This document shows, piece after piece, positions 3,689 through 18,092 of a stretch of DNA of 20,273 nt. The position numbers and the translations under genes were made by a program. Below the pieces are notes generated by a model, which did not search any database, had not been told where the DNA came from, and saw nothing but the letters and a program-made list of their open reading frames with translations. This DNA comes from a virus. Numbering within the stretch: the stretch's first letter is position 1; each line of letters begins with the position of its first letter. Location of the stretch: IMG/VR virus record IMGVR_UViG_3300033074_002003. One strand, given 5' to 3'.

Positions 3689-3689
3689 C

Positions 3690-3759: not shown

Positions 3760-3823
3760 CTGACACGACTTTCTTAACAGAGCTTGTTGACAGACGAATG
3801 CAAAATCTGTCAGTGGGGATAAA

Positions 3824-4082: not shown

Positions 4083-4083
4083 C

Positions 4084-4165: not shown

Positions 4166-4169
4166 CTCT

Positions 4170-4219
4170 TGGGCGCCCAGGTGGGAACCACCACGGTCAC
4201 GAATTCGGGCGCCCGATTT
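4170..4219 (+). terminator. spacer hairpin: two copies of the palindromic octamer GGGCGCCC (4170-4177 and 4207-4214) can pair across a 29-nt loop, followed by GATTTT
   Basis: Seen directly. Sits between tRNA-Leu and tRNA-Asn. Could be a terminator or an RNA processing structure. Confidence 0.3.
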
Positions 4220-4292
4220 TGGGAGGTATCATAACTGGCAATGATGCGAACTGTTAATTCGTAGTATGCAGGTTCGAATCCTGCCCTCCCAG
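4220..4292 (+). tRNA. tRNA-Asn(GTT), 73 nt
   Basis: Acceptor TGGGAGG/CCTCCCA. D-stem TCAT/ATGA with loop AACTGGCA. Anticodon stem GCGAA/TTCGT with loop CTGTTAA. T-arm GCAGG-TTCGAAT-CCTGC. Confidence 0.75.
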
Positions 4293-4394
4293 CCCACTGT
4301 CCCGTGAAACGGACACCATCTTGCTCGTAGTTCGGTCAAACGGAAAGGGTTCACGTCTTGTTACGTAATGTTTCGTGTTGTGTAATATGTCTAC

Positions 4395-5048: not shown

Positions 5049-5085
5049 ACAAGCGTCACCTCCGATGTAGCTATTCTAGGGTGCC

Positions 5086-5421
5086 ATGAGTTACTATTCG
5101 ACCGTCGAGCTCATTCGCATAATCGGAAGTGATCCGTTTGTGGCATGGGCGCGCAAGTGCGAAGAGTGTGGGGGTCGCCTCGTGCTGCGCAGGGACGTCG
5201 AGGTTCGCTACATGGAGCGCACGAAAGACTGCAAGGGCAAGTGGGTCTGGATCTCACACAGGGGCAACAAGCGCGGGAGGAAGCGAGTCCTCGAGAAGTG
5301 CTACCTGAAGCAGTGCGCGGCCTGCGGCGAGAGGACAGAGGACGCCTGGTGTATGATCAGGAACGCAGAAGCGAGCGATCACTACCGCACAGAACGGGAG
5401 GGTGCCGGCTATGAGTTTTAG
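5086..5421 (+). CDS. small zinc-ribbon protein, paralog 1 of 4 (two CxxC pairs)
   Basis: KCEECGGRLVLRR plus CAACGERTEDAWC. The ATGAGTT start is shared with the three downstream paralogs. GC-rich. Confidence 0.5.
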   Translation: MSYYSTVELIRIIGSDPFVAWARKCEECGGRLVLRRDVEVRYMERTKDCKGKWVWISHRGNKRGRKRVLEKCYLKQCAACGERTEDAWCMIRNAEASDHYRTEREGAGYEF

Positions 5422-5638
5422 CGCAGCAGTCGCCGCGATGCGCGCTCGCGGGACACGCGTATTCTCGAGGAGGAAGTGCCCGAACTGTGGCTACACACTC
5501 AGGCTGCACCGCGAGTCTTTTTACGACGAAGACATTGGCTACTACGAGCGCAAGTGGAGCAAGCTCTGTGGCTGGTGCGCCAGTATGTACTGCGATGCGT
5601 CAACTGACGTCAGAAATTCATATGAGAAGAGAGTATGA
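5411..5638 (+). CDS. small zinc-ribbon protein, paralog 2 of 4
   Basis: MSFSAAVAAMRARGTRVFSRRKCPNCGYTLRL plus CGWCASMYC. Start set at the second ATG, 5411, after the strong SD GGGAGGGTG. The track ORF starts at 5402. Overlaps the paralog 1 stop. Confidence 0.5.
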   Translation: MSFSAAVAAMRARGTRVFSRRKCPNCGYTLRLHRESFYDEDIGYYERKWSKLCGWCASMYCDASTDVRNSYEKRV

Positions 5639-5898
5639 GTTTCAGGCGTATTGTTCAGATTTTGAGGGACTGGAAGACAACAATATACTCTCGACGTCGC
5701 TGTACTTGTGGCGGTCTGCTTATCTTGCGTCGCAACATCAGAGCGTTCAGAAATCGTAGCAAGGGTGTGAAACAAATCGACCGCACTTTTTACAAGCGGT
5801 GTACCCGATGCAAGCAGGCGTTCGCAGATCCACAAACAGTCGTCATGAACGCCGAAGACACCAGACGTCGTTACAAGACGGGTGAGAAAGTAGGATGA
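5635..5898 (+). CDS. small zinc-ribbon protein, paralog 3 of 4
   Basis: MSFRRIVQIL..SRRRCTCGGLLILRR plus CTRCKQ. ATGA overlap with the upstream stop. Lower GC than paralogs 1 and 2. Confidence 0.5.
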   Translation: MSFRRIVQILRDWKTTIYSRRRCTCGGLLILRRNIRAFRNRSKGVKQIDRTFYKRCTRCKQAFADPQTVVMNAEDTRRRYKTGEKVG

Positions 5899-6137
5899 GT
5901 TTCCAGAGTGTCGTGAAGCTAATGAAAACGTACGGCGAACGCACTTTCTCGAGGAGGAAGTGTCAAGACTGCGGCCACCGCCTCGTCCTCCGAAAGGGCA
6001 GAGCGGTGATAAGAGTACGGCACTCAAACGGCACGTGTCGCGTGAACCGCAGCTTCTACATCAAAATTTGCGAGGGGTGTAAGATCGATGAAACTGACAT
6101 TCAGGTTCGCCTATTGAACAACCCAAATCAGAAATAA
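5895..6137 (+). CDS. small zinc-ribbon protein, paralog 4 of 4
   Basis: MSFQSVVKLMKTYGERTFSRRKCQDCGHRLVLRKGR plus CEGCK. ATGA overlap with the upstream stop. Confidence 0.5.
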   Translation: MSFQSVVKLMKTYGERTFSRRKCQDCGHRLVLRKGRAVIRVRHSNGTCRVNRSFYIKICEGCKIDETDIQVRLLNNPNQK

Positions 6138-6138
6138 C

Positions 6139-6211
6139 GCTGTCATAGCTCAGCTAGAAGAGCGCCACTTTGGTACAGTGGAGGCCGCCGGTGCGATTCC
6201 GGCTGACAGCT
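6139..6211 (+). tRNA. tRNA-Thr(GGT), 73 nt
   Basis: Acceptor GCTGTCA/TGACAGC. D-arm TAGCTCAGCTAGAAGAGC. Anticodon stem CCACT/AGTGG with loop TTGGTAC. T-stem GCCGG/CCGGC with loop TGCGATT. Confidence 0.65.
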
Positions 6212-6216
6212 CCAAT

Positions 6217-6296
6217 CCCGTCGTCGTCCAATGGAAGGGCACCGGTCTACGAAACCGGGCAGAGATGCAATGCAGGTTCGAGTCCTGCCGGCGGGG
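6217..6296 (+). tRNA. tRNA-Arg(ACG) with an unusually long (13-nt) variable region, 80 nt
   Basis: Acceptor CCCGTCG/CGGCGGG with one G-U pair. D-stem GTCC/GGGC. Anticodon stem CCGGT/ACCGG with loop CTACGAA. Extra GCA-GAGA-TGC mini-arm before the T-arm GCAGG-TTCGAGT-CCTGC. Confidence 0.5.
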
Positions 6297-6462
6297 CAAT
6301 AGGCGACAGTCGTCGTCCACACCGAAGACTATGACTCGGACGTGTGAGCCGCTCGGAAGCCCGTGCAGAGGGAAGAGAGCGGAAAGTGCCGAGGGCTGTC
6401 GCACTAGCTCGGAGCACCGAAGACAAGTGCTGTAAGTGGGTTGCTCCGCGATGCGGCACTCT

Positions 6463-6548
6463 GGAAGGTAAACCGGCTACGGAGCTGGGCCCGCCTCGAA
6501 AGCGGTGCGGGGCGGCAACGCCCTGGGGTTCGAGCCCTCTACCTTCCG
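6463..6548 (+). tRNA. tRNA-Ser(CGA), type II, 86 nt
   Basis: Acceptor GGAAGGT/ACCTTCC is perfect. Anticodon loop CTCGAAA. Variable arm GGGCG-GCAA-CGCCC. T-loop TTCGAGC. Overlaps the spurious N-terminal extension of track ORF 6505..6903. Confidence 0.6.
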
Positions 6549-6570
6549 CGGAGACGTCATACTTAACGGG

Positions 6571-6903
6571 ATGGCGAACGTGAACGACATCGTGAGGGCC
6601 CTCGTCAGAGAGGTGATTGAGACGTACGATCCGACGGGCGGCGGGTTCAATCCCTACGCTTCTGAGATGGAACTAGACGTCGCGATGATCGACGGAAACA
6701 CGGTGCGAGCGGTCATCGAGTACGGGTACGACGGCGACGAGGTCTCGATCGACAGGGTTCGCAACGCAGAGACCGGCGAGGTCATCCCTCCAGAGGCGCT
6801 CGCCGCAGAGGAAGACGAGCTGCAGATGATCGTGTGGGAGAAGAGAAAAGAAGACGACGAGGTAGAAGCGGCGGCTGACAGGGCCGATTCGCTCGACTGG
6901 TGA
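6571..6903 (+). CDS. acidic hypothetical protein (110 aa)
   Basis: Start moved to ATG 6571, downstream of tRNA-Ser. High GC3. Asp/Glu-rich C-terminus. Confidence 0.45.
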   Translation: MANVNDIVRALVREVIETYDPTGGGFNPYASEMELDVAMIDGNTVRAVIEYGYDGDEVSIDRVRNAETGEVIPPEALAAEEDELQMIVWEKRKEDDEVEAAADRADSLDW

Positions 6904-6913
6904 ACGAGAGATT

Positions 6914-7002
6914 GGAGGGCGTAGACCTGCGTGGTGCGGGCATTCGTTTGGAAAACGAATAGGTGCCGTGAGGTGCCTGCGGTTCGATTCCGCCGCCCTC
7001 CG
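6914..7002 (+). tRNA. tRNA-Ser(GGA), type II, 89 nt
   Basis: Acceptor GGAGGGC/GCCCTCC is perfect. Anticodon stem TTCGT/ACGAA with loop TTGGAAA. Long variable arm. T-loop TTCGATT. Discriminator G. Confidence 0.6.
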
Positions 7003-7042
7003 CTGCTGTGAACAACACAGTGACCCAGAGTAAAATTCTAGG

Positions 7043-7297
7043 GTGAAGCGGTCTGATTGGGTGCCCACCGTGGGCGACATCGTGACAAACAAGTCGTCTG
7101 TCGCGATGTTTCGGGTGATCGAAGTCACTGAGGAGTACGTGCGAGCTCGAAAGGTCTTCTCCCTCTCAAAGAAGAGGGGTGGGGTCTATCGAATTAGCAA
7201 GTTGGGCCTCAGGAAGTTTGTTGTGACCGACCTCCACGAGATGAGCAACTCTCTCGTCGCGCTCGTAGCGGGCGAGAGAAATAGGGGAGCTCGGTGA
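7043..7297 (+). CDS. hypothetical protein (84 aa as listed; start uncertain, GTG or an internal ATG)
   Basis: Open frame with GC-rich third positions. No clear RBS. The start overlaps a motif, ATTCTAGGGTG, that is also found before the CDS at 5086. Confidence 0.3.
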   Translation: MKRSDWVPTVGDIVTNKSSVAMFRVIEVTEEYVRARKVFSLSKKRGGVYRISKLGLRKFVVTDLHEMSNSLVALVAGERNRGAR

Positions 7298-7304
7298 CAG
7301 TTAT

Positions 7305-7380
7305 GGTGGTGTTAGCCTAGTGGTTAGGGCACTCGAATGTGACTCGAGAAATTCGCACGGTTCGATTCCGGCACATCACC
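7305..7380 (+). tRNA. tRNA-His(GTG) with G-1, 76 nt
   Basis: Acceptor GTGGTGT/ACATCAC, preceded by G-1, which can pair with discriminator C. This is the His hallmark. D-stem GCCT/GGGC. Anticodon stem CTCGA/TCGAG with loop ATGTGAC. The T-loop TTCGATT is present but the T-stem is weak, at 3 bp. Confidence 0.6.
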
Positions 7381-7393
7381 CTATGTAGCTTAC

Positions 7394-8272
7394 ATGCTTA
7401 GAACGTGTGATTATTGTGACTTGACTGATGACTTTAATAGCGTTCAATCTTGGGCAGCACACCGTTCGAATTGTATAAAAAATCCCAATCGAACAGCGAA
7501 GCTGGCGAGAATGAGTGAATCGGCAGCCAAAGTTTCACGTAAAATCCTTGCTTTGACGTGTAGTTGTGGTTCGCTATTTTCCATAGAAGTCACAGACGCT
7601 GAAATTACGCGTGGTGCACATAGACACTTCTGTTCGCGGCAATGTGCAAATCGTCGTCAGCATTCGTCTGAAACCAAACAGAAAATTTCGCAAAGTGTTT
7701 CCAGATTTTTTCCCGAATCTATTTCTGTCGAAGTTGAATGTGCCGAGTGCAAGCGTAAATTCGTTGGTAAAACAGGAAGAACGTGTTGTTCACAACAGTG
7801 CGCTCGCGTAATCAATAATCGAAAAAGAATGATTGCAGCACAGTTGCCAGAAACTAGAGCAAAGATCGCAGCGAAGACTTTAGAGGCTTATGCTAACGGT
7901 CGCGAACAGTGTGGTGGGCGAACGAAATGGTTTGATGTTTACACGCTTCGATACGGCAAAATTCGTGTGCAAGGGACGTATGAAGTTCGAGCGTGTCAAA
8001 TTCTTGACAAGATGCTTGCTTCTGGAGAATTGATCGCGTGGGAATATACACGAGCTAGATTTCCTTATGTAGACACGTCTGGCAAACAACGTATGTACAG
8101 ACCGGATTTCAAGCTTGTTTATCCTACACACGAAGAATTTGTTGAAACGAAGGGATTTTCAACACCAAATGACGAACGCAAATGGGAAGCTCTTCGTTTG
8201 TTGGGTCATCATTTGTCAGTGTGGCGTGAAGCTGATCTCAAACAACGTGAATCTAAAGAGCATATGTCCTGA
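7394..8272 (+). CDS. putative free-standing nuclease with a PD-(D/E)xK / Vsr-like (DUF559-like) C-terminal domain and two N-terminal Cys-rich C..CAR modules
   Basis: The C-terminal YEVRACQILD..WEYTRARFPY..YRPDFKLVYPTHEEFVETKG matches the PD..(D/E)xK arrangement. HFCSRQCANRRQ and TCCSQQCARVINNRK resemble the GRFCSKKCARAFS module of the two HNH genes. AT-rich island between tRNA-His and downstream genes. Confidence 0.5.
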   Translation: MLRTCDYCDLTDDFNSVQSWAAHRSNCIKNPNRTAKLARMSESAAKVSRKILALTCSCGSLFSIEVTDAEITRGAHRHFCSRQCANRRQHSSETKQKISQSVSRFFPESISVEVECAECKRKFVGKTGRTCCSQQCARVINNRKRMIAAQLPETRAKIAAKTLEAYANGREQCGGRTKWFDVYTLRYGKIRVQGTYEVRACQILDKMLASGELIAWEYTRARFPYVDTSGKQRMYRPDFKLVYPTHEEFVETKGFSTPNDERKWEALRLLGHHLSVWREADLKQRESKEHMS

Positions 8273-8284
8273 GAGGACACGACA

Positions 8285-8524
8285 ATGAACTGTTCGGTGG
8301 CGCTACGCAACACAATGGCAAACATCGCGCTCGATGCGTTCCCGTTCGCCACGGGCGCGTGGACAGACGGCGATCGCGTGGTCGTGTACGTTAGCGACGA
8401 CCACGACCTCACCGACCAGAGGTCAGGCGACGCGACGTTCAGGTTTCCGGAGTTCGACGGCGAGTCAGTGAGAGAAATTTCGAGGCCCGTCACCATCGAA
8501 TTCGTGAGACACTCGTTCACGTAG
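8285..8524 (+). CDS. hypothetical protein (79 aa)
   Basis: GAGAGGACACGACA precedes the ATG. High GC3. Confidence 0.45.
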   Translation: MNCSVALRNTMANIALDAFPFATGAWTDGDRVVVYVSDDHDLTDQRSGDATFRFPEFDGESVREISRPVTIEFVRHSFT

Positions 8525-8584
8525 CTTAATTGGTAAAGCACCGCATTTTGGCGGAGGCTGTGAGTTCGAATCTCATCGTGAACA
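8515..8584 (+). pseudogene. degenerate tRNA-like gene (70 nt) with a 4-bp anticodon stem and a 6-nt loop
   Basis: Acceptor GTTCACG/CGTGAAC is perfect. D-stem GCTT/AAGC. T-arm GTGAG-TTCGAAT-CTCAT. The anticodon arm is CCGC-ATTTTG-GCGG, which is 3 nt too short. Overlaps the stop of the 8285..8524 CDS. Confidence 0.35.
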
Positions 8585-8586
8585 CA

Positions 8587-8889
8587 ATGTGGGCAACATC
8601 ATACATAGAAGCGCTGCGCGCGGGTGAGACGGTGTCTTTTAGGCCCCGTGGGAACTCGATGCGTCCAAAGATCGAGTCCGGACAGCTTGTCACTGTCTCG
8701 CCCGTCGGCGAGCGCGAGCTGCAAACGGGAGACATCGTCTTGTGCAAGGTTTCTGGTCACCAGTACCTGCACATCATCACCGCCATCGATCAGGACGGCA
8801 GGTGCCAGATCAGCAACAACAGGGGTCACATCAACGGGTGGGCACAGCGACAGAATGTGTTCGGCGTTGTCGTGAAGGTAGAGGACTGA
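8587..8889 (+). CDS. S24-family (LexA/UmuD/signal-peptidase-like) peptidase domain protein
   Basis: GNSMRPKIESGQLVTVSP...GDIVLCKVSG resembles the S24 Ser-Lys dyad motifs (GxSMxP ... GDxVxxK). Start moved to ATG 8587, after the tRNA-like element. The track ORF starts at 8530. Confidence 0.45.
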   Translation: MWATSYIEALRAGETVSFRPRGNSMRPKIESGQLVTVSPVGERELQTGDIVLCKVSGHQYLHIITAIDQDGRCQISNNRGHINGWAQRQNVFGVVVKVED

Positions 8890-8895
8890 GAGAGC

Positions 8896-8982
8896 GGGAG
8901 ATTAGTTCAGAGGAAGAACGCGTCCCCTACAAGGACGATGCCCTTAGGGTTTACACAGGTTCGAATCCTGTATCTCCTACCA
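8896..8982 (+). tRNA. orphan type-II tRNA with anticodon loop CCTACAA (TAC by standard numbering, C33) and an encoded 3' CCA; isotype uncertain
   Basis: Acceptor GGGAGAT/ATCTCCT. D-stem GTTC/GAAC. Anticodon stem CGTCC/GGACG is perfect. 17-nt variable arm GCCC-TTA-GGGT. T-arm ACAGG-TTCGAAT-CCTGT. Discriminator A, then CCA. Confidence 0.45.
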
Positions 8983-9019
8983 CACCTAGTGTTCACATAG
9001 TTCGATATAACTATCGTTC

Positions 9020-9622
9020 ATGAAATGTGAACGCTGTCAAGTTGAACACAGTGGGACGTATGGTTCGGGAAGATTTTGCACAGTCAAGTGTGCGAGATCT
9101 TTTTCAACAGCGTCTACTTCTGAAAAACGTTCAGAGATCAACAAACGAGTATCAGCGACACTAACGCAACCGCCAAAAGTAGCGACCTGTTGCATGTGTA
9201 ACACGCGGTATGAAACGCGACATCAGCGTTCTACATGTTGTAGTAAAGAGTGTCGAAAAGCTCGTAAAGCTCAAGTACAACACAACGTAACTAGAGAACA
9301 AAGAATCGAATTGGGCATCAAGAGTTCCTTTGGCAAATATGTTCGAAATCCGACAAGTTTGTATGATTTGAGCAACCGAACAATCAGTAAGATTCTTACA
9401 AGACTCGGAATCGGGTGTTCTTTGTGTGGTTGGTCTGCTGGAAAGTGTGACATTCATCACATTCGTGGTCGGAAAATTGAAGAAGCAGACAGACACGAAA
9501 ATTTGGCCTACGTGTGTCCAAATTGTCACAGGCTGATTCACAACAAGAAAATCAAGATTGACAGTCTTGTATCACTTCAAGATCAGATTGGTGATCGCTG
9601 GAAAGAGCTCTATTACGGTTAA
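9020..9622 (+). CDS. HNH homing endonuclease, a paralog of 361..1080
   Basis: N-terminal MKCERCQVEHSGTYGSGRFCTVKCARSFS. HNH motif CDIHHIRGRKIEEADRHENLAYVCPNCHRLIHN. AT-rich. Confidence 0.75.
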   Translation: MKCERCQVEHSGTYGSGRFCTVKCARSFSTASTSEKRSEINKRVSATLTQPPKVATCCMCNTRYETRHQRSTCCSKECRKARKAQVQHNVTREQRIELGIKSSFGKYVRNPTSLYDLSNRTISKILTRLGIGCSLCGWSAGKCDIHHIRGRKIEEADRHENLAYVCPNCHRLIHNKKIKIDSLVSLQDQIGDRWKELYYG

Positions 9623-9623
9623 G

Positions 9624-10013
9624 ATGAAAGTACTGATTTCTGGCGATCGAGAGTGGACGGACGTCGAGACTATTGTTGCTGCACTCGAGATGCTCCCGCC
9701 CGGGTCTGTCATCGTTCACGGCAACTGTCGGGGCGCTGACATCATTGCTCGCGAGTGTGCGATCGCAATGGGCATCGAGCACAGGTCCTACCCCGCGAAG
9801 TGGCACTTGTACGGAAATTCGGCGGGCGCGATTCGCAACAGAGAGATGGTTCGCGAGGAACACCTGTCAGAAGAGCCCATTGAGCTGGTGCTGGCGTTTC
9901 ACGACTCACTCACAGAAAAAAGCAAGGGAACGAGAGACATGGTAACCGTTGCTGAGGCTGTGGGAATTCCCTGGGTGCTTTGCCTGTCCGCCGCGAAGCG
10001 CGCGAATATGTAA
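9624..10013 (+). CDS. SLOG / DUF2493-like (YspA-like Rossmann) protein
   Basis: MKVLISGDREWTD...VIVHGNCRGADIIARECA...YPAKWHLYGNSAGAIRNREMV matches the phage DUF2493/SLOG signature (GxxxGAD ... GPIRN). Start set at ATG 9624, just after the HNH stop. The track ORF starts at 9558 inside the HNH gene. Confidence 0.5.
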   Translation: MKVLISGDREWTDVETIVAALEMLPPGSVIVHGNCRGADIIARECAIAMGIEHRSYPAKWHLYGNSAGAIRNREMVREEHLSEEPIELVLAFHDSLTEKSKGTRDMVTVAEAVGIPWVLCLSAAKRANM

Positions 10014-10020
10014 GAGAGCA

Positions 10021-10506
10021 ATGTCGTCGCTTCGCACCTTCGTGCAGATTCTCGTCGAGAGGGTGGGTGCTCCGCTACCAGACGAGGCGATTAGTGCGAT
10101 CGTGGGGGAGTACGCAGAGTCGCCGAAGCACCCTGAGATGCGACTCACGTGGAAGTGGGGCTCTGTTCACAGCGGCAGGCGCGTTCCCGGGTGGGGAGCG
10201 TACGTTCCCGACGATTTCGCGATTGTGATGAAGAGGTCGAGGGGAGCGAGCCCAGAAGATTTTGTCCTGACGCTCCTGCACGAGCTCGAACACTACAACC
10301 AGCACGTGAGAATGGCAGATGAGCTCCCGCAGGGCGCGACGAGGCAGGAGATCGTCGACGCATGGACAGAGTCGTACGGCGGGGCACTGAACACCTCGTC
10401 CTACGATGATAATATGTACGAGGTCTCAGCAGAGGCATTTGCACAGTCAGAGTTGGAGAACGCTCTGCAGATCGCTGGGATCACCCCGTCGTGGCCGAAT
10501 GGATAG
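10021..10506 (+). CDS. putative zinc metallopeptidase (HExxH)
   Basis: LTLLHELEHYNQH HExxH motif. Start set at ATG 10021, after AAGAGAGCA. Confidence 0.4.
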   Translation: MSSLRTFVQILVERVGAPLPDEAISAIVGEYAESPKHPEMRLTWKWGSVHSGRRVPGWGAYVPDDFAIVMKRSRGASPEDFVLTLLHELEHYNQHVRMADELPQGATRQEIVDAWTESYGGALNTSSYDDNMYEVSAEAFAQSELENALQIAGITPSWPNG

Positions 10507-10510
10507 GCAC

Positions 10511-10559
10511 CTCCCTCCGAAGGAGACTCACGCAGGTTCGAATCCTGCCGAAGGGGCCA
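10511..10559 (+). pseudogene. tRNA 3' fragment: short hairpin CTCC-GAA-GGAG, T-arm GCAGG-TTCGAAT-CCTGC, acceptor strand, discriminator and encoded CCA
   Basis: The T-arm is identical to that of tRNA-Asn at 4268-4284. No acceptor 5' partner lies within 90 nt upstream. Confidence 0.4.
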
Positions 10560-10570
10560 TAGTTACAAAT

Positions 10571-10657
10571 GGGAATCTAGCTCAAAGTCCGCGTCAGCGG
10601 GGGCAGAGCGGTCCGTTAGTAAGCGGACAGGTCCCGGTTCGAGCCCGGGGATTTCCT
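10571..10657 (+). tRNA. atypical 87-nt tRNA-like gene (perfect acceptor and T-arm, 8-nt anticodon-type loop TTAGTAAG, hairpin inserted in the D region)
   Basis: Acceptor GGGAATC/GATTTCC. T-arm CCCGG-TTCGAGC-CCGGG. Stem GTCCG/CGGAC closes an 8-nt loop. The D region GCTC...GAGC encloses an extra 5-bp hairpin, TCCGC-GTCA-GCGGG. Confidence 0.35.
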
Positions 10658-10661
10658 CAGA

Positions 10662-11195
10662 TCACTTGTCGGTGCGTGGGATGGGAGGTTTTGCCGCGAC
10701 GGACGAGACTCTCTTTGTCTGTGTGCTGTCGTTCTTCGTGAGCGCCTTGTGAATCGCCGTCGGGCGAGGTGGCGGAGCGGTATCGCCCGTGTGGACCTCG
10801 CGGAGGCTCGGTATCGAGATCTTCTTTACGTTTGACTCGAGTGCAGCCTCGATTTCAGAGATTCGCCTCTGCACCTCGACGTACTTCGCGAGGAGCGCGT
10901 CGTAGTCCTCGCGCTGCGACGCGATCGTCGACATGAATGTCGTGTAGCCCGCCTGCGCATCTTTGATGTCGTTCAGCATGAAAGCGGCGTCCCGGCGCAG
11001 CTCGTTCAACTGAGCCTCCAGTGCCTGGTTTTCTTTCGTGGCCGTAAATCCGGTGACGATCTCTTCCTTTACGCGCCACAGCAGGTAGATCACGATCAGT
11101 CCGATAGCGAGCGCTCCCACCTTGATGCAGAGGTCTAGGAGGACTGGGTCGACGAAACGACCGAAATCGAACTGCGAGGCCGAGGACAAAAACAT
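10662..11195 (-). CDS. membrane-anchored coiled-coil protein (N-terminal transmembrane helix, type-II topology), the only minus-strand gene
   Basis: Hydrophobic LLDLCIKVGALAIGLIVIYLLW. Heptad-like ALEAQLNELRRDAAFMLNDIKDAQAGY. Pro-rich tail. Start set at the internal Met (ATG at 11195-11193 on the minus strand) because the listed start, 11285, would overlap tRNA-Ser(GCT) on the + strand. Confidence 0.45.
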   Translation of the reverse strand: MFLSSASQFDFGRFVDPVLLDLCIKVGALAIGLIVIYLLWRVKEEIVTGFTATKENQALEAQLNELRRDAAFMLNDIKDAQAGYTTFMSTIASQREDYDALLAKYVEVQRRISEIEAALESNVKKISIPSLREVHTGDTAPPPRPTAIHKALTKNDSTQTKRVSSVAAKPPIPRTDK

Positions 11196-11221
11196 GACAA
11201 AGTGTAAGTATTGAACGACAC

Positions 11222-11309
11222 GAGAACGAATGGAAGCATACTCAAGAGGCTGACGAGATCCGACTGCTAATCGGATGTGTCCCATAAAGGCACCGCGGGT
11301 TCGAATCCC
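11222..11309 (+). tRNA. tRNA-Ser(GCT), type II, 88 nt
   Basis: Acceptor GGAAGCA/TGCTTCC is perfect. Anticodon stem TCCGA/TCGGA with loop CTGCTAA. Variable arm GTGTC-CCATAAA-GGCAC. T-arm GCGGG-TTCGAAT-CCCGC. Confidence 0.65.
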
Positions 11310-11364
11310 GCTGCTTCCGCAAATCTGAACACCACCCAGTAGAGCGGTATGATAGGACGGACAG

Positions 11365-11454
11365 TCACACTGTTGGAGGCGTGGTGGAGTGGTCGATCAC
11401 GTCCGTCTTGAAAACGGAAGATCGGTGATGAGCCGGTCCGGGGGTTCGAATCCC
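11365..11454 (+). tRNA. tRNA-Ser(TGA), type II, 90 nt
   Basis: Acceptor GGAGGCG/CGCCTCC is perfect. 3-bp D-stem with a long loop. Anticodon stem TCCGT/ACGGA with loop CTTGAAA. Variable arm CGGT-GATGA-GCCG. T-arm GGGGG-TTCGAAT-CCCTC. Confidence 0.7.
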
Positions 11455-11596
11455 TCCGCCTCCGCAAATTCTGTACAAACCGCTCTCAGTGAGCCATAAT
11501 GAGCATGACCTGAAAATTGTCGCCGAGAACCGAAGTTTTCGGTGTCACCCATCACACCGTGTGTTACAACAGTCACTCTTGGAGGAGTGATACGCA

Positions 11597-12283
11597 ATGG
11601 AAGACACTGCTGTCGCAGAAGACGCTGTTGACGATGACATCAGCGTCTCGATGCCCGATGATGTCGTTCCCACAGAACCCCGTCCCGCGTGGAAGCCCGA
11701 TATCAGCGCGCTGCCGAACGCCTACGAGTGGGTGGGTGGAGAGCCGCGCCTCCTTGTTGGCGTGAAAGACAAGATTGTCATCGACTACTCTGCGCTCGAG
11801 GCGGGACTGTTCCTCGACACGAGGTGTTGGGTGATCGACAAGGTGGGCGAGGACGGGTACCTCGGTCTCTACGATCCACACCAGCGACAGTACGGGTGCA
11901 CGAACTGGATCACCGGTCCGAAGCGGGGACTTCTCATCAAGATTCCCGGTTCTGCGAGCGACCTCGTCGGTGTGGGCGTGATGTCGCGCAAGGGAGCGAG
12001 GAGAGCGGTGGCGCGAGCCCTGAAAGAGCAGCGCGCGGCGGACGAGGCCGCTACGAAGAAGACTGCTGATGCACCCGGTGGAGAGAAGAAGCGCGGGAGG
12101 GGTAGGCCGAAGGGGACGATCAACAGCAAGACGCGAGATCGCCTCGTTGCTGCGGGTCACGATCCCGCGAAGCTCACGAAACAGCAGATCGACGAAATCA
12201 TGGCGGGAATTCGCAAAGCTGAGTACGAGAACGCGAAGGCAGAGAAACGTAGGCTGAAGGAACTGAAGAAGGACGGACGATGA
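11597..12283 (+). CDS. hypothetical DNA-binding protein with an AT-hook (GRGRPKG) and a Lys/Arg-rich C-terminus
   Basis: Strong SD GGAGGAG 8 nt upstream. KKRGRGRPKGT AT-hook motif. Acidic N-terminus. Confidence 0.55.
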   Translation: MEDTAVAEDAVDDDISVSMPDDVVPTEPRPAWKPDISALPNAYEWVGGEPRLLVGVKDKIVIDYSALEAGLFLDTRCWVIDKVGEDGYLGLYDPHQRQYGCTNWITGPKRGLLIKIPGSASDLVGVGVMSRKGARRAVARALKEQRAADEAATKKTADAPGGEKKRGRGRPKGTINSKTRDRLVAAGHDPAKLTKQQIDEIMAGIRKAEYENAKAEKRRLKELKKDGR

Positions 12284-12600
12284 AGAAGAGGCAGCAGCAG
12301 TCGGGTCGTGGTCAGAGCAACGTGATCGAGTTCGAGCGTGTGGATGTCAATGACATCTGTTACGCCTCCGACGACGAGCTCTACCAGCTCTCGCACGAAC
12401 TTACTTCTGCCCGCGAGCGCGGGCGTGACCTCGATACCCGCGATGTGGAGATCGAGATCTGCTACGTGCAGCGCGAGAAGAAGATTCGCGCGGCTCGCAG
12501 GGAGGCTCACGAGCTGTACGTGCAGAACCTGCAGAACGAGAACGCCGCGCTGGGAAATGCGATGGCCCTCTCGCTCTCGCCCACCGAGGTGGCGAACTGA
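12280..12600 (+). CDS. hypothetical protein (106 aa)
   Basis: ATGA overlap with the upstream stop. High GC3. Coiled-coil-like. Confidence 0.5.
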   Translation: MKKRQQQSGRGQSNVIEFERVDVNDICYASDDELYQLSHELTSARERGRDLDTRDVEIEICYVQREKKIRAARREAHELYVQNLQNENAALGNAMALSLSPTEVAN

Positions 12601-13466
12601 TGACACACGTCAGGTCTTCGAAAAAGGGAGGACGCGGAAGGGTCGGAAAGAGCTCACTTCAGTGGGAGCAGGCAAAGAGGAAGTCGATTTCTTCGCTGGA
12701 GTGTGACACAGTGTCCTGGATGATGTCCAAGGCGGGCAAGATCCCGCTCCTCACTCACGACGAGAGCACCGAGCTTTTCAAGAAGCTCGAGGCGGGCGAC
12801 ACGCGCGTCCGCGAGAAGATCGTGAGCTCCAACCTGAAGCTCGTGATCTCCATCGCGAAGAAGTACAAGAAGCACACCGGCGTCGACTTCGAGGACCTCC
12901 TGCAGGAGGGCAACATCGGCCTCATGAAGGCGGTCGAGAAGTTCGATCACCGCCGCGGCTTCAGGTTCTCCACCTACGCGACGTGGTGGATCCGGCAGGC
13001 AGTCGGTCAGTTCGTCGCGAAGACGAGCCGGACGATCAGGCTTCCCGCACACGCGATCGGCGTCTCGCGCAAGATCGAGGACGTGAAGCGCGAGTACAGG
13101 GAGAAGTTCGGTGAGGAGCCCACCGAGGCGGACCTCTCTGAGATGATGGACGTCTCCGAGAGCATCATCAAGGCCGCTTCTCGAGGTGCCAGGCGGACGA
13201 TCTCGCTGTCCTCGCCCATCGATCGAGACTCTGACGGCGGAGACACCCTCGCGGACACGATCCCCGACACCTCTGCGGGTAGTAACCCGTTCGAGGCCTT
13301 CCTCGAGAAGGAGTCGTACCAGATCGTGAAGGAGTCGTTCGCGAAGCTCACTCCGAAAGAGGAACAGATCATCAGGCTCAGGTTCGGAATCTCTGATTCT
13401 ACGCCCGAGATGGAGATCAGCGAAGCCGAGGAGGAGGAGATCGCGCGGGCAGGAGGAGCACAGTGA
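12600..13466 (+). CDS. sigma-70 family RNA polymerase sigma factor (regions 2, 3 and 4.1 present; region 4.2 HTH absent)
   Basis: NLKLVISIAKKYKKHTGVDFEDLLQEGNIGLMKAVEKFDHRRGFRFSTYATWWIRQAV...RTIRLP is a near-consensus sigma-70 region 2.1-2.4. LTPKEEQIIRLRFGI is region 4.1. The ORF ends 24 aa later without the recognition HTH. TGATG overlap with the upstream gene. Confidence 0.8.
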   Translation: MTHVRSSKKGGRGRVGKSSLQWEQAKRKSISSLECDTVSWMMSKAGKIPLLTHDESTELFKKLEAGDTRVREKIVSSNLKLVISIAKKYKKHTGVDFEDLLQEGNIGLMKAVEKFDHRRGFRFSTYATWWIRQAVGQFVAKTSRTIRLPAHAIGVSRKIEDVKREYREKFGEEPTEADLSEMMDVSESIIKAASRGARRTISLSSPIDRDSDGGDTLADTIPDTSAGSNPFEAFLEKESYQIVKESFAKLTPKEEQIIRLRFGISDSTPEMEISEAEEEEIARAGGAQ

Positions 13467-13639
13467 AAGCCACGTACTGGTTCGTCTTCGATCGAAGGAA
13501 GCAATTCACCGAGTACGAGGCGTCGTTCCTCGACCGAGCGGAGGCTGACACCTACGCGAGCGACAAGCTCGGCGAGTTCGCGCACGTCACTCAGGACCTG
13601 AAAAATACGCTAGTCGTGCTGAAAGCGGGAGGACGATAG
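13463..13639 (+). CDS. unlisted small ORF (58 aa), GTG start overlapping the sigma stop (GTGA), preceded by AGGAGGAG
   Basis: Hand translation: VKATYWFVFDRRKQFTEYEASFLDRAEADTYASDKLGEFAHVTQDLKNTLVVLKAGGR. GC-rich third positions. Strong SD. The stop TAG lies 1 nt before the next ATG. Confidence 0.35.
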   Translation: MKATYWFVFDRRKQFTEYEASFLDRAEADTYASDKLGEFAHVTQDLKNTLVVLKAGGR

Positions 13640-13640
13640 G

Positions 13641-13919
13641 ATGGCAATGCCCTTGGGGAAGAAAATCAGCGGTGGGTACGCCACCGTGAAGGACGGCGGC
13701 GACTACCGCAAGATCGCCGAGGAGCTCACGCGCCGCGGGTTCAAGATGAATCACAGCAGCGCACGGAACAAGTTCCTCGCCGCGATGAAGAGCATCGCCG
13801 AAGACATCCTCCGGGCGGGCGGCAAGTCTCCCACGGACGAGGAGGTGTCTGAGCTCGCGAAGTCTCCCATGTTCCAGTCAGCGATCCACGACATGTACGA
13901 ACGTCACCTCGCTGAGTAA
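13641..13919 (+). CDS. hypothetical small protein with an HTH-like segment (92 aa)
   Basis: SD GGGAGGA 6 nt upstream. YRKIAEELTRRGFKMNHSSARNKFLAAMKSI has a helix-turn-helix pattern. Confidence 0.45.
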   Translation: MAMPLGKKISGGYATVKDGGDYRKIAEELTRRGFKMNHSSARNKFLAAMKSIAEDILRAGGKSPTDEEVSELAKSPMFQSAIHDMYERHLAE

Positions 13920-13963
13920 GCTCTCTCCTGTGAGAATACTTATCCTCGTCTACACGCGGGACG

Positions 13964-14125
13964 ATGATGAATACCTCACAGGATAGTGCTGAGTCTGCCG
14001 AGCGCGAGGCTCTCGAAGAATTGCTGAAGAAGAAGCCTGGCAGACCGAAGAAGAAGCAACCGAGGCACGGGGCCACATCGTGGCGTCACTGGCTCGAGAG
14101 CGATGAAGGAGTAGATTCCCAATGA
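13964..14125 (+). CDS. unlisted small ORF (53 aa) with a GRPKKK AT-hook-like motif; ATGA overlap with the next gene
   Basis: Hand translation: MMNTSQDSAESAEREALEELLKKKPGRPKKKQPRHGATSWRHWLESDEGVDSQ. Ends TGA at 14123-14125, overlapping ATG 14122. Confidence 0.3.
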   Translation: MMNTSQDSAESAEREALEELLKKKPGRPKKKQPRHGATSWRHWLESDEGVDSQ

Positions 14126-14469
14126 AGCCGTACAGTCGCAAGCCCACAGTGTGGGATCTGATCCAACGTCGCGGGGTGTCGCTCGCGGAGTGGGATCGTC
14201 ACTTCGGTGTCGCCTCGTACGCTGCACACGCGGCGCAGTGCGCTGTCGTTGGCGTCGAGCCGGCGACCGAGAGCGAATGGCTCGCGTCGAGGCCCGCACC
14301 GCCCGTGCAGGAGGTGTCCCAGCCCGAGAAGAAGCCCGAACTGCTCGTCTTTGTGCCGCTCGAGGAGCCGCGCGAGGTTGTGGCAGAGCCCGCCTCGCGC
14401 AAGGGCAAGGGCCGCAAGAGAGAAACAGATGTGACGACCGAGGGTGATGACGTGGTGCCGGAACGGTAA
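14122..14469 (+). CDS. hypothetical protein (115 aa)
   Basis: High GC3. The 3' end overlaps the start of tRNA-Cys by about 20 nt. Confidence 0.45.
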   Translation: MKPYSRKPTVWDLIQRRGVSLAEWDRHFGVASYAAHAAQCAVVGVEPATESEWLASRPAPPVQEVSQPEKKPELLVFVPLEEPREVVAEPASRKGKGRKRETDVTTEGDDVVPER

Positions 14470-14520
14470 CGGCTGCGTCTGCAAAACGCATGTGTGTGGG
14501 TTCGAATCCCGCCCACGTCT
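14449..14520 (+). tRNA. tRNA-Cys(GCA), 72 nt
   Basis: Acceptor GACGTGG/CCACGTC is perfect. D-stem GCCG/CGGC. Anticodon stem TGCGT/ACGCA with loop CTGCAAA. T-arm GTGGG-TTCGAAT-CCCGC with one G-U pair. Confidence 0.65.
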
Positions 14521-14530
14521 CGACGAGTAG

Positions 14531-14581
14531 CACAGTGTACCCAGATATGGTACACTGTGTACATTTTACACCCAGAGTGTA
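14531..14581 (+). promoter_or_regulatory. perfect 11-bp-stem hairpin (CACAGTGTACC / GGTACACTGTG, 7-nt loop) followed by ACATTTT, plus a third AGTGTAC copy 41 nt downstream; candidate terminator and/or operator upstream of the kinase-ligase-deacetylase block
   Basis: Inverted and direct repeats of AGTGTAC/GTACACT at 14534, 14551 and 14575, seen directly. Lies between tRNA-Cys and the ATG at 14595. Confidence 0.4.
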
Positions 14582-14594
14582 CTATGGCCACTGC

Positions 14595-15134
14595 ATGAGA
14601 TGCAAGTCTGATTTTCTCGGTCGCCTCTGTGCATACGAACCCGACGCGCTCGTACGATTCGGCGTCGGGAGGCGCGTCGGTTCCGGTCGAAGCGGCACTG
14701 TGTATGAGTCCGCCCGTGGGTGTGTCATCAAGGTGGCGTCAGCGGGAATCGAATTTTGGGACGAGATCGACGGGATCCTCTCGTACCTCAAGGACGTCAA
14801 GAACCCATCGGTGATGGACGTGAAGGAGTACCACTTCATCGGATCTGACGCGTCTGACGTGCTCTACTGCCTCATCTCGGAGCGGCTTCACCCGATCGAC
14901 AATGACGACGAGGGCGAATTTGCCTGTGCTGTTGTCGACGACGTGTGGAACCCAGAGAACGTGCCAGACGAGACTCGGGCCGACCCGCGCTGGCACTCGC
15001 GCCCTTTCGAGGAGCTCAGGAAAAATCTCAGGGCGCTCCCATATGTCCACAAGGACATTCACTGGGGGAATATCATGAAGGACTGTTTCGGAAACTACAA
15101 GCTCATCGATGTGGAGGCTTTCAATGTCACGTGA
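14595..15134 (+). CDS. minimal Hanks-type (eukaryotic-like) protein kinase-like protein, about 180 aa, lacking the activation segment/C-lobe
   Basis: Gly-rich loop GVGRRVGSGRSGTVYE. VIKV, the beta3 Lys. HKDIHWGNIM (an HRDxxxxN-like catalytic loop). KLIDVE (DFG-like). Start set at ATG 14595. The track ORF starts at 14490 inside tRNA-Cys. Confidence 0.55.
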   Translation: MRCKSDFLGRLCAYEPDALVRFGVGRRVGSGRSGTVYESARGCVIKVASAGIEFWDEIDGILSYLKDVKNPSVMDVKEYHFIGSDASDVLYCLISERLHPIDNDDEGEFACAVVDDVWNPENVPDETRADPRWHSRPFEELRKNLRALPYVHKDIHWGNIMKDCFGNYKLIDVEAFNVT

Positions 15135-16452
15135 TGTCATCCGCGCATTTGCGACGCTTCTTGCGCTCGAGGGCGCACAGGGATCGAACGCGAAGAAGGC
15201 GCTGCTCGAGGCAGAGTTCGACAACGAGGCCCTTCGCGACCTCGTATTTGCCGCGTACGGCGGCGATGTGTACGGGTCGTATTCGACGCTGAAGTTCGAC
15301 GACGAAGAAGGGCCCGCACCGTCGCCAGAGCGCTTCGATGACTTCTTCGCGATGCTGAAGCGCCTCGCTCGCCGTGAGGTGACGGGCGACGCAGCCGTTG
15401 CAGAGATCGACGCGTTCATCGGCGGCTGCAACGTCACCGAGAAGAAGTGGTACAGGCGTGTGATCGACCACGACCTGAAGGTCGGTTGCAACAAGAGGAC
15501 GTTCTCGAAGGTCTGGGACTTCAAGTCGCTCGCGCTCGGCGGCGACGTGAAGGACATAGCGGACGTCACCTTCCCGGGCGTCATGCTGTGTGAACCGAAG
15601 GAGAAGTACGTCGCGAAGTTCACAGGCGATCTCCTCGTCGAACCGAAGCTCGATGGCCTGCGCCTCGTCTTCGTGTGGGAGGGCCGTGACAAGTGGTCTT
15701 TCTTCTCGCGATCGGGGAAGAATGACAGGTACAACGACAACCTGAAGCACATTGCGGCGAACCTCGTGGGCGCGATGCACGTCTGTGGCTGGCGCAAGGG
15801 AATCATCGACGGCGAGGTGATGGGTGAGACGTGGAACAGCACGCTCGCCGTGAAGCGCAAGGAGCTCACCGCACAGGACCTCGAGGAGATCGCCCGCTGC
15901 AAGTTCCACGCGTTCGATCACCTCACTGGCCCGGACGACGTGCGACCGCAGCACAAGAGACGGGCGACGCTCGCGGGGATCTGCGGGCACATCGAGTCTA
16001 ACTACGCGGGTTCGAAGGTGACGCTCGTGCCGCAGACGCGGGTGAAGTCGCTCGAAGAGGCCCGGGCGCTCTTCAACACGTTCCTCACACAGGGGTACGA
16101 GGGCGCGATCGTGAAGGACTCGGACGCTGTCTACAAGTTCGACAACAAGCGCTCGAAGCTCTGGATCAAGATCAAGCCCGTCGACACACAGGACGTTCGC
16201 GTCACCGGATTCTATCCCGGGAAGGAGCGCACGAAGTACGAGGGCACTCTCGGGGGCTTCAACGTGATCGACGCGGGCGGGCAGGAGTTCAATGTCGGCG
16301 GCGGGTTCACCGACGCACAGCGGAACGCCTTCTGGGAGGGCCGCGAGGGGTACGTGGGCAAGTACTGTGAGATCGAGTTCCAACCCGATCCCGCACAGGT
16401 CGCAAAGGGAAGGTTTCCGGTATTCATTCGCTGGCGGGAGGACTTGGAGTGA
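15124..16452 (+). CDS. lig: ATP-dependent DNA ligase
   Basis: Nucleotidyltransferase motifs: I EPKLDGLRL (KxDGxR), III IIDGEVM, IV EGAIVKD, V LWIKIKP. C-terminal OB-like GKYCEIEFQ...RFPVFIRWREDLE. GGAGG 6 nt upstream of ATG 15124. Overlaps the kinase stop. Confidence 0.8.
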   Translation: MSRDVIRAFATLLALEGAQGSNAKKALLEAEFDNEALRDLVFAAYGGDVYGSYSTLKFDDEEGPAPSPERFDDFFAMLKRLARREVTGDAAVAEIDAFIGGCNVTEKKWYRRVIDHDLKVGCNKRTFSKVWDFKSLALGGDVKDIADVTFPGVMLCEPKEKYVAKFTGDLLVEPKLDGLRLVFVWEGRDKWSFFSRSGKNDRYNDNLKHIAANLVGAMHVCGWRKGIIDGEVMGETWNSTLAVKRKELTAQDLEEIARCKFHAFDHLTGPDDVRPQHKRRATLAGICGHIESNYAGSKVTLVPQTRVKSLEEARALFNTFLTQGYEGAIVKDSDAVYKFDNKRSKLWIKIKPVDTQDVRVTGFYPGKERTKYEGTLGGFNVIDAGGQEFNVGGGFTDAQRNAFWEGREGYVGKYCEIEFQPDPAQVAKGRFPVFIRWREDLE

Positions 16453-17321
16453 TGAGAGAGCACAATTCGTACGCGCTGCCCGTTTTCTACTCAGACCTGA
16501 TGGTCGCCGATTCCCAGTCGATCTCGCCCTCGGCGGCGAAACCCAAGGCTGTGGTGAGATCGTGGATCGAACGCGCCCTGCACATCGAGCTCTACGAGCC
16601 CGAGCCCGTCACGCCAGCACAGTTCGCGCTCGCTCACGATCCCGAGTATGTTCGACAGATCCTTGCGTGCGAGCGTGACAACGGGTTTGGGAACAGGAGC
16701 GCCGCTGTCGCTGCGGCACTTCCTTACACTACGGGCGCGATGCTCTCCGGTGCTCGCCACGCTCTGAAGCACAGGTGCGCGGTCGCCGCACCATGTTCCG
16801 GATTTCACCATGCCGAGTATGACCAAGAACAGGGCTTCTGCACGTTCAACGGGCTCATGGTCACCGCGCTCGCGCTCGAGGCAGAAGGGCTCGCGAGGCG
16901 CGTTGGGATCCTCGATTGCGACATGCACTACGGCAACGGCACAAATGAGATCGCACACAGGCTGCGAAAGTTCGGTCTCATCTCCCATTTCACTGCTGGC
17001 GCGCACTTCGAGGAGGTCGAAGACGCCGATCGCTTCATGTCGAGCATCGCAGATATCGCCTGGCAGTTCAACGACTGCGACATTATTCTCTATCAGGCGG
17101 GTGCGGATCCACACGTCAACGATCCCTACGGTGGGTTTCTCACGACGGCGCAGATGAAGGAGCGCGACAGGATCGTGTTCAGCGCGTTCCGTGCGATGAA
17201 CAAGCCGGTCGTCTGGAACCTCGCTGGCGGCTATCAGGTCGAGCGCGACGGGAGCATTCCGAAAGTGCTCGAGATCCACGACAACACCGCTATCGAGTGC
17301 ATCAAGGCTTTCTCTTACTAG
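16449..17321 (+). CDS. histone-deacetylase-family (HDAC/AcuC/acetylpolyamine amidohydrolase-like) zinc-dependent deacetylase
   Basis: ILDCDMHYGNGT, YQAGADPHVNDPYGGFLTT, VVWNLAGGY and GFCTFNG match the conserved HDAC-fold metal and substrate motifs. ATGA overlap with the ligase stop. Confidence 0.75.
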   Translation: MMREHNSYALPVFYSDLMVADSQSISPSAAKPKAVVRSWIERALHIELYEPEPVTPAQFALAHDPEYVRQILACERDNGFGNRSAAVAAALPYTTGAMLSGARHALKHRCAVAAPCSGFHHAEYDQEQGFCTFNGLMVTALALEAEGLARRVGILDCDMHYGNGTNEIAHRLRKFGLISHFTAGAHFEEVEDADRFMSSIADIAWQFNDCDIILYQAGADPHVNDPYGGFLTTAQMKERDRIVFSAFRAMNKPVVWNLAGGYQVERDGSIPKVLEIHDNTAIECIKAFSY

Positions 17322-17375: not shown

Positions 17376-18092
17376 ATGAGCGAAGAGAAGAGAGTCGACC
17401 TCTACAAGGCCACCGAAGAGCAACTGCAATTCGCGGCGACGCGTCCCACTGTGTGGGAGGAGAGGTGGGCCAAAGGCGACGGCTGCGTGGGCATCCCGTT
17501 GCAGGAATGGTTCAACGCTCGCCTCGACGCCGCTCGCACGAGGGGTGGCAGGGAAGCTGAGGACCGCGTTTCCGCGTGTCCTGGTCAACAGATCATGCGC
17601 ATCAGAGACAACATTGCGGGTGTCTTCGGCGCCACGAGCGCGGAGGTCATCTCGACGCACCGGTCGAAGTCTGTGGAGCTTCCCGTCTACAGGCTCACGA
17701 ACGATCGCCTGAAGGTGCGAGCGTACCTCCGTGACAACTTCTACAACATCAAGCTGTCGATCGATTCGGAGCGCCCGGTGAACGCAGACTTCACCGGTCT
17801 CTTCGAGACAGCGCACACGCACGAGCACGACGATTACTCGGGCGACGACCTCGCGTCGTGCTACTTCGAGGGCTTCCCTGAGTCGCTGGTGTTCGACTAC
17901 TATGGTCACACCGACGGTCGGAGATGGAGCGCCCAACTGCGTGGGTACGAGTCGCTGTGGACGGCACTCTTCCTCATCAGAAGGTCGTTCGGTGACATTC
18001 ACAGGATCGAATCGAATGGTGACGTCGATCACACGCGGGAAATGGACCGCGACACGGCCCTGAGGCTCATCAGAGAACGGAAAACGAAGTGA
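17376..18092 (+). CDS. hypothetical protein (238 aa)
   Basis: AAGGAG 8 nt upstream of the ATG. High GC3. Confidence 0.55.
   Translation: MSEEKRVDLYKATEEQLQFAATRPTVWEERWAKGDGCVGIPLQEWFNARLDAARTRGGREAEDRVSACPGQQIMRIRDNIAGVFGATSAEVISTHRSKSVELPVYRLTNDRLKVRAYLRDNFYNIKLSIDSERPVNADFTGLFETAHTHEHDDYSGDDLASCYFEGFPESLVFDYYGHTDGRRWSAQLRGYESLWTALFLIRRSFGDIHRIESNGDVDHTREMDRDTALRLIRERKTK

Follow-up and report, generated by a model that had tools for sequence, protein, structure and literature searches.

Three overlapping genes

The stretch of DNA considered here (the window) comprises 20,273 nucleotides of the virus record IMGVR_UViG_3300033074_002003 from IMG/VR; its G+C content is 56%, and it appears to be part of the genome of a large tailed phage that has not been cultivated. 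Three adjoining genes of this window are the subject of the present study. They encode a short kinase-like protein, an ATP-dependent DNA ligase and an enzyme of the HDAC family, and an earlier note on the same DNA had taken them for a single translationally coupled cassette. The arrangement of their relatives in other viral contigs points rather to three independent neighbours.

14595–15134, + strand: kinase-like gene, 179 amino acids (aa), start codon ATG 14595, stop codon TGA 15132–15134
15113–15117, + strand: GGAGG, Shine-Dalgarno sequence of the ligase gene, inside the 3′ end of the kinase gene and 6 nt 5′ of ATG 15124
15124–16452, + strand: ATP-dependent DNA ligase gene, 442 aa, start codon ATG 15124 (or ATG 15109), stop codon TGA 16450–16452
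16452–17321, + strand: HDAC-family gene, 289 aa, start codon ATG 16452 or GTG 16449

All three open reading frames (ORFs) have the same orientation and the borders initially assigned to them. G+C content at third codon positions (GC3) greatly exceeds that at second positions (GC2) in each of them: in the kinase gene GC3 is 0.73 and GC2 0.39, in the ligase gene 0.84 and 0.40, and in the HDAC gene 0.76 and 0.43. Thus, coding is real in all three, including the kinase-like ORF, for which a non-coding nature had been considered. The longest version of this ORF reaches back to ATG 14490, and the extension runs into the tRNA-Cys gene (14449–14521), showing no GC3 bias expected for coding DNA. A tRNA gene is located directly 5′ of the mini-kinase in all relatives examined (at about 9910–9990 in locus L011, 7720–7795 in L012, 9885–9960 in L013, 1105–1180 in L014 and 2820–2895 in L016). 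Since the extension is a translated tRNA without coding bias and the relatives have a tRNA at the same place, the start at 14595 assumed before is credible, and the kinase ORFs called in the relatives carry translated-tRNA N-termini (P0001 with 214 aa, P0124 with 226 aa).

The kinase and ligase genes overlap by 11 nt (ATG 15124) or by 26 nt (ATG 15109), which bears out the observation that the kinase gene ends within the ligase start region equipped with GGAGG. The ligase and HDAC genes overlap as well, though not by sharing ATGA, as had been stated: the TGA stop codon of the ligase precedes the ATG, so that the common nucleotide lies within TGATG (1 nt, ATG 16452), or else 4 nt are shared as GTGA (GTG 16449). 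Such contacts are by no means confined to the trio. Further junctions of the same gene train overlap by 1–4 nt (12280/12283, 12600, 13463/13466 and 18089/18092), and the stop/start overlaps of the trio are therefore not special. They reflect generic phage gene packing and are not a sign of a dedicated three-enzyme machine, even if the trio is probably co-transcribed.

Minimal kinase

The 179-aa protein has every motif by which it was first recognized: a G-loop GSGRSG (residues 29–34), VIK with K46, the catalytic loop HKDIHWGN with D154 and N159, and IDVE with D172. In 50 aligned relatives D154 and N159 are invariant, while K46 and D172 are kept in at least 90%. D172 is equivalent to Asp of the DFG motif; F and G of this motif are replaced. 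The polypeptide ends 7 residues after D172 and has neither an activation segment, as was already noticed, nor the APE motif and subdomains VIII–XI (helices F to I). What it contains is the N-lobe, followed by helices D and E, the catalytic loop and the Asp that corresponds to that of DFG.

Standard searches turned out to be blind to this protein. It had no match in Pfam (even at E ≤ 0.1, so that the gathering score of PF00069 is unmet), PHROGs, NCBIfam or a direct sequence search of the PDB, and a word-index protein search returned only self-matches. No member of the family was detectable by DNA, protein and tblastn searches in 50,697 GenBank phage records, and IMG/VR scans both with the kinase alone and with the alignment of its close relatives gave no match; a metagenome scan with the latter alignment found one near-identical contig of 1.7 kb. 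A PADLOC match to PD-T4-6 was marginal (E = 0.0078) and was disregarded. The family became visible when 1.84 billion cluster representatives were scanned exhaustively with HMMER: 60 proteins reached E ≤ 1e-3, and only three of these fall outside a length of 140–260 aa. So far it is known only from uncultivated large phages.

With the family alignment as an input AlphaFold produced a model with a predicted local distance difference test (pLDDT) of 95.3 and a predicted template modelling (pTM) score of 0.89, compared to a pLDDT of 35 in the single-sequence run. The predicted structure is a bilobal kinase fold, in which two short N-terminal helices precede an N-lobe made of five strands and helix C; then come helices D and E, the catalytic loop and strands around D172, the final element being a beta strand at 176–178. 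The family profile compared with the PDB matched protein kinases with E of about 1e-6, the match extending from the G-loop as far as the DFG position. Taken together, the conserved residues, the profile and the model support the assignment of the product as a minimal kinase of the Hanks type that has no activation segment.

The type of the kinase is a more delicate question, and the check by structure and profile proposed at the outset settled it in part: it established the predicted Hanks-type fold and only leans towards a protein kinase rather than a small-molecule kinase. According to the second view, which we consider unlikely but which retains some weight, the 179-aa protein would be a small-molecule kinase or a kinase-fold ATPase of APH, choline-kinase, Bud32 or RIO type. 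It is favoured by the absence of a substrate-binding C-lobe and by the catalytic loop H-x-D-x-H-x-x-N, which has His in place of Lys of protein kinases; His also occupies this position in APH, choline-kinase and RIO enzymes. One RIO2 chain and one APH chain were among the matches. When the 50 relatives were compared with Pfam, the largest share (19 of the 50, sub-threshold or weak) fell to Pkinase, followed at weaker levels by APH with 11 of them, ABC1 with 10 and choline kinase with 6.

One of the related phages has two such genes in a row: a second mini-kinase paralog of 212 aa (L012, 8388–9026) follows directly 3′ of the first and is 31% identical to the kinase of the window.

Ligase

The ligase is complete, and its nucleotidyltransferase motifs and OB tail, seen already in the first reading, were recovered by profile searches. 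The adenylation domain matched PF01068 (2.4e-21, 76.8 bits versus a cut-off of 26.2) and the OB domain matched PF14743 (5.4e-9, 36.4 bits versus 28), while the match of the N-terminal DNA-binding domain to PF04675 remained sub-threshold (1.4e-3, 19.3 bits versus 24.6). Motif I, containing the lysine of KxDG, reads EPKLDG. Phage ligases of phrog_114 were matched over the full length (2.2e-84), and with ligases of the SPO1 group (SPO1 gp32.95 type) the protein shares about 29% identity over 99% of the length. Ligases encoded next to the relatives of the kinase are much closer, being 49–61% identical across L011, L012, L013 and L016, and 56–61% in the first three of them. Judging from its sequence, it is a divergent but ordinary phage ATP-dependent ligase, and its service in replication and repair is well supported.

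HDAC-family enzyme

The product of the third gene matched PF00850 with 6e-34 (118 bits versus a cut-off of 27.9). It contains FHH, LDCDMHYGNG and GADPHVNDPYGG; the metal-site motifs DxDxHxGNG and GxDxxxxDxxG described previously are thus present, and the last one, taken for GGGY, is in fact AGGY. The tandem His residues H119 and H120, D155, the Asp-His-Asp zinc ligands D157/H159/D219 and the catalytic Tyr Y261 are invariant in 25 homologs, these roles being assigned by mapping onto the residues of HDAC8.

The best relatives with solved structures are 9RJE (7.5e-21), 9GKV (1.2e-16) and the pair 9GZ5/9RJD. The first is HDAC11 clade A from Chlamydomonas, 9RJD together with 9GZ5 represents clade B from Leptospira, and 9GKV is HdaH from Vibrio cholerae, a lysine de-decanoylase of cluster 5b (PMC13325672, PMC11532494). 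The signature of class IV, or cluster 5, has an xGGFHH-type motif in place of RPPGHH and xGGY in the last motif (PMC11532494), and CSGFHH and AGGY are their counterparts in the window. Compared with the solved enzymes of this class, the protein is shorter (about 289 aa) and phage-encoded. It is supported as a predicted class IV, HDAC11-like (cluster 5), zinc-dependent deacylase or amidohydrolase, whose probable reaction is the deacylation of lysine or of a small amine. Overall it is closest to clade A, for which no peptide activity is reported, yet it has the Phe gatekeeper typical of fatty-acyl-lysine deacylases of clade B, and because of this combination the sequence does not fix the substrate class.

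An IMG/VR scan with the HDAC sequence alone found no match, whereas the alignment-based scan brought the number of predicted viral contigs with a relative to at least 161; the 80 of them that were listed reach lengths of up to 390 kb. The neighbourhoods were inspected in 80 loci of the 161 contigs, about 8 kb on each side where the contig permits. Genes of bona fide myoviruses, such as gp19 tail tube, tail sheath, DnaB and 5′-3′ exonuclease, occur there, and even the commonest neighbour family reaches only 21 of the 80 loci, which is also the count for the gp19-like tail tube. In a representative locus (L065) the gp19-like tail tube gene stands immediately 5′ of the HDAC gene. In the 595-kb huge phage LR756511 (L001, 5947–6857) the homolog is split over two frames by a frameshift or an assembly error.

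Homologs that are 56–62% identical were found in bacterial-looking contigs, in a metagenome-assembled genome (MAG) of Myxococcales and in a 536-kb phage-like contig (L027). A recent acquisition from Myxococcota was considered on account of 60–62% identity to the Myxococcales MAG and a bacterial-looking contig, and of two homologs named Polyangiales and Polyangiaceae in NCBI; it was dropped, since equally close relatives are present in bona fide phage contigs. The HDAC lineage moves among many phages and bacteria, and in the window it occupies a variable slot 3′ of the ligase.

Arrangement of the three genes in relatives

Loci of relatives were compared over about 10 kb on either side of the kinase. 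Four of them (L011, L012, L013 and L016) are syntenic phage contigs, one 209 kb long (L013), with the closest kinase relatives for which the surroundings were usable (31–42% identical by tblastn). They share with the window the order orf11597, orf12280, sigma factor, orf13463, orf13641, tRNA, kinase and ligase. In all four the kinase and the ligase are separated by 0.5–2.4 kb containing from 1 to 5 variable genes, some of them on the opposite strand:

L016: one gene with a weak Ribosomal_L12 match
L011: a Ribosomal_L12-like gene and a reverse-strand Peptidase_M10-like gene
L012: the second kinase paralog and an M10-like gene
L013: five genes, including EamA and an ADP-ribosylglycohydrolase

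In the last of these loci the ADP-ribosylglycohydrolase gene (12120–13016) overlaps the start of the ligase, and the corresponding slot of the window is empty.

What follows the ligase also varies: a GIY-YIG endonuclease in L011, a 140-aa ORF in L012 and two small ORFs with a homolog of orf17376 in L013. No HDAC gene was found in the compared regions of the four loci. In the window orf17376 (17376–18092, + strand) is a conserved gene of 238 aa, 53% identical to L013 15003–15680, and its product had no match in Pfam, PHROG or NCBIfam. As its homolog in L013 comes after the ligase and the two small ORFs with no HDAC in between, orf17376 marks the slot occupied by HDAC in the window.

The arrangement of the window recurs only in fragments that are about 94–99% identical to it, namely in L003 and L018 (kinase and ligase) and in L005 (ligase, HDAC and orf17376), the last one, a 96% identical variant, being the only other case of HDAC adjoining the ligase. 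The 80 HDAC-bearing viral loci contained neither the mini-kinase (0/80) nor any other kinase (0/80), and an ATP-dependent ligase was found in 2/80; no mini-kinase or ligase neighbours were found at the HDAC loci of phage E3 (gp202) and LR756511 either. The more distant kinase relatives of L006, L008 and L009 reside in huge-phage contigs (up to 442 kb) and have neither a ligase nor HDAC adjacent; the sole ligase of L009 is NAD-dependent and lies 8 kb from the kinase. These three loci have a conserved neighbourhood of their own with an NAD/ADP-ribose theme, composed of WGR-PARP, NADAR, SLOG/YpsA-DprA-like, calcineurin-like phosphoesterase and Dam methylase genes. A connection with NAD/ADP-ribose biology, suggested by the PARP, NADAR and SLOG genes and by the ADP-ribosylglycohydrolase of L013, was set aside, as the window contains none of them. 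Conserved linkage of the trio in other phages, proposed earlier as a check, was thus not found.

Independent neighbours or a functional unit

Based on these data one can assume, with a probability of roughly 0.75, that three independently evolving genes came to abut by chance in the packed gene train of a large uncultivated tailed phage, the first encoding a predicted stand-alone kinase, the second an ordinary ligase and the third a mobile HDAC. Variable spacing between the kinase and the ligase together with the absence of HDAC from the compared regions of the relatives means that the trio is not a conserved working unit. The kinase would then function on its own and is predicted to be catalytically competent, as it retains the G-loop, K46, D154, N159 and D172. 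By analogy its targets may be proteins of the host or of the phage, phosphorylated early in infection in order to take over the cell or to counter its defence. The ligase would be the usual nick-sealing enzyme of phage replication and repair, and HDAC would act as an accessory class IV deacylase placed in the variable slot 3′ of the ligase gene.

Several observations weigh against this interpretation. In five related phage lineages the distance between the kinase and the ligase is only 0–2.4 kb, and synteny alone leaves room for a functional relation between them. In the 536-kb phage-like contig (L027) a relative of HDAC lies 2.7 kb from a fusion of a DnaJ domain with a protein kinase (2254–3285, phrog_2361), this fusion being unrelated to the mini-kinase family. 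Finally, the absence of HDAC refers to the 10 kb or so that flank the kinase on either side in each relative, and an HDAC gene may lie elsewhere in these genomes.

The first of these points may be developed into a two-gene functional pair, where, for instance, the kinase regulates the ligase or other replication proteins, and HDAC is an unrelated later insertion. Apart from the short distance, the same order and the same strand are preserved in the window, L011, L012, L013 and L016, and the kinase of T7 (gene 0.7) is likewise close to the ligase (gene 1.3) in the early region. However, these phages are collinear all the way from orf11597 to the ligase, and the proximity of the two genes is therefore explained by shared ancestry. 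Moreover, the kinases of L006, L008 and L009 do without an adjacent ligase, having PARP, NADAR, SLOG and phosphoesterase genes as neighbours and, as the only ligase, the remote NAD-dependent one. A pair of this kind appears improbable.

Least probable of all is the cassette itself, with the kinase, ligase and deacylase acting together in host takeover, anti-defence or nucleic-acid repair: stop/start overlaps, a Shine-Dalgarno sequence inside the upstream gene, repetition of the arrangement in the near-identical variants L003, L018 and L005 and the nearness of the kinase to the ligase in all checkable relatives speak for it, but no relative beyond about 94% identity retains the trio, variable genes, partly on the opposite strand, intervene between the kinase and the ligase in L011, L012, L013 and L016, where HDAC is missing, HDAC does without the mini-kinase in 80 other viral loci and meets an ATP ligase only twice, and overlapping junctions are generic in the window. 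The roles once suggested for the trio (host takeover, anti-defence or repair) are thus unsupported, and its distribution in relatives argues against linkage.

Preferring independent neighbours, we conclude that each of the three proteins adds a further member to a type already known and that their linkage is a lineage-specific accident. The significance of the finding lies in the members themselves. A family of minimal kinases is timely, as the kinase of T7, truncated in a similar way, has lately proved to be an anti-defence weapon of broad action (PMC13645617), and a class IV HDAC-like deacylase proves to be a recurrent and unexpectedly common phage gene (at least 161 IMG/VR contigs). A bolder suggestion, which we regard as doubtful, is that the proteins of this kinase family, of about 140–260 aa, are the smallest self-sufficient protein kinases known, serving jumbo phages as promiscuous T7K-like early anti-defence enzymes, that the HDAC11-like deacylase represents a phage strategy for erasing host lysine acylation or acyl-amine marks and signals, and that in this phage both would converge on the same host targets.

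Genomic setting

The trio belongs to a co-directional gene train located 3′ of a stretch rich in tRNA and endonuclease genes. The train begins at the gene of a sigma-70-family factor and continues with small ORFs, a tRNA, the kinase, the ligase, HDAC and further ORFs. The sigma factor is 57–60% identical to the products of genes at the equivalent position in L011, L012, L013 and L016. Other features of the window are as follows:

90–14521, + strand: array of 26 tRNA genes (ARAGORN), most amino acids covered
256–1080 and 9020–9622: HNH homing endonucleases amid the tRNA array
4395–5048: GIY-YIG/NUMOD3 homing endonuclease amid the tRNA array
12600–13466, + strand: sigma-70-family factor gene (Pfam Sigma70_r2 6.2e-21, r3 5.5e-11)
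14449–14521, + strand: tRNA-Cys (GCA) (ARAGORN), final tRNA of the array, directly 5′ of the kinase gene
14531–14585, no strand assigned: perfect 11-nt inverted repeat CACAGTGTACC/GGTACACTGTG with three copies of CAnnGTGTAC about 21 nt apart (repeat search), between tRNA-Cys and the kinase start

Three of the 26 tRNA calls are odd, having 2- or 4-base anticodons. The repeat site at 14531–14585, which the window shares with the near-identical variants L003 and L018 but not with more distant relatives, could be a terminator, an operator or another regulatory site. Scanning of the + strand between 13400 and 18500 for terminator-like sites revealed none.

Comparison with known systems

No functional study of the phage HDAC11-like family was found in the literature searched. 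Viral polyamine deacetylases with the HDAC fold are on record solely from giant viruses of eukaryotes (PMC9992855).

The stripped-down kinase is not without precedent, since equally truncated kinases are known and small phage proteins have already been annotated as protein kinases. One of the latter, from an uncultured Caudovirales phage, has 206 aa, bears the name 'Protein kinase domain-containing protein' and was the best match of the model in BFVD (template modelling (TM) score 0.75, E = 1.2e-10). Further matches were proteins of 174–224 aa from Ralstonia phage RSB1, Xylella phage Cota and Sphingobium phage Lacusarx, some of them annotated as kinases. Their sequence identity to the kinase of the window is about 15–23%. 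Accordingly annotated is also phrog_18305 ('kinase'), matched by 15 of the 50 family members. No characterisation of these small proteins was found, and no search was aimed at it.

Stand-alone kinase domains of similar size (about 160–200 aa) and likewise without subdomains VIII–XI are found in the effectors OspG of Shigella and NleH of enteropathogenic Escherichia coli (EPEC), which are active as protein kinases despite this truncation (PMC12756638). Neither was among the top structural matches of the model.

A further parallel is the phage-encoded kinase gp0.7 of T7 (T7K). In the hhalign comparison the family profile was aligned with T7K residues 71–220 with 95.4% probability (E = 1.9e-8), the alignment spanning the G-loop, the VIK lysine, the catalytic loop D-x-H-x-G-N-I-M and the DFG-like motif (DPVSF in T7K versus DLESF in the family). 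In both cases the kinase domain stops about 7–27 residues past the DFG-like Asp and has no activation segment or subdomains VIII–XI. The differences are that the kinase of the window lacks the C-terminal DNA-binding shut-off domain and the 70-residue N-terminal extension of T7K, and that DPV of T7K corresponds to DVE in the window and to DLE in the family consensus. In the same comparison a fragment of a bacterial Hanks kinase (P0188) reached 98.4% and the phage DnaJ-kinase fusion 7.7%; as the bacterial fragment outscores T7K, specific kinship to T7K is not claimed. The phrog of gp0.7 was weakly matched by 7 of the 50 relatives, while the kinase of the window itself misses all PHROG kinase families. 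The study of T7K, which also mentions jumbophage homologues devoid of the shut-off domain and leaves their function open, assigns residues 1–242 to the protein kinase domain, with the DPV motif at 213–215, and describes the enzyme as hyper-promiscuous towards Ser, Thr and Tyr and as disarming the defences of the host (PMC13645617).

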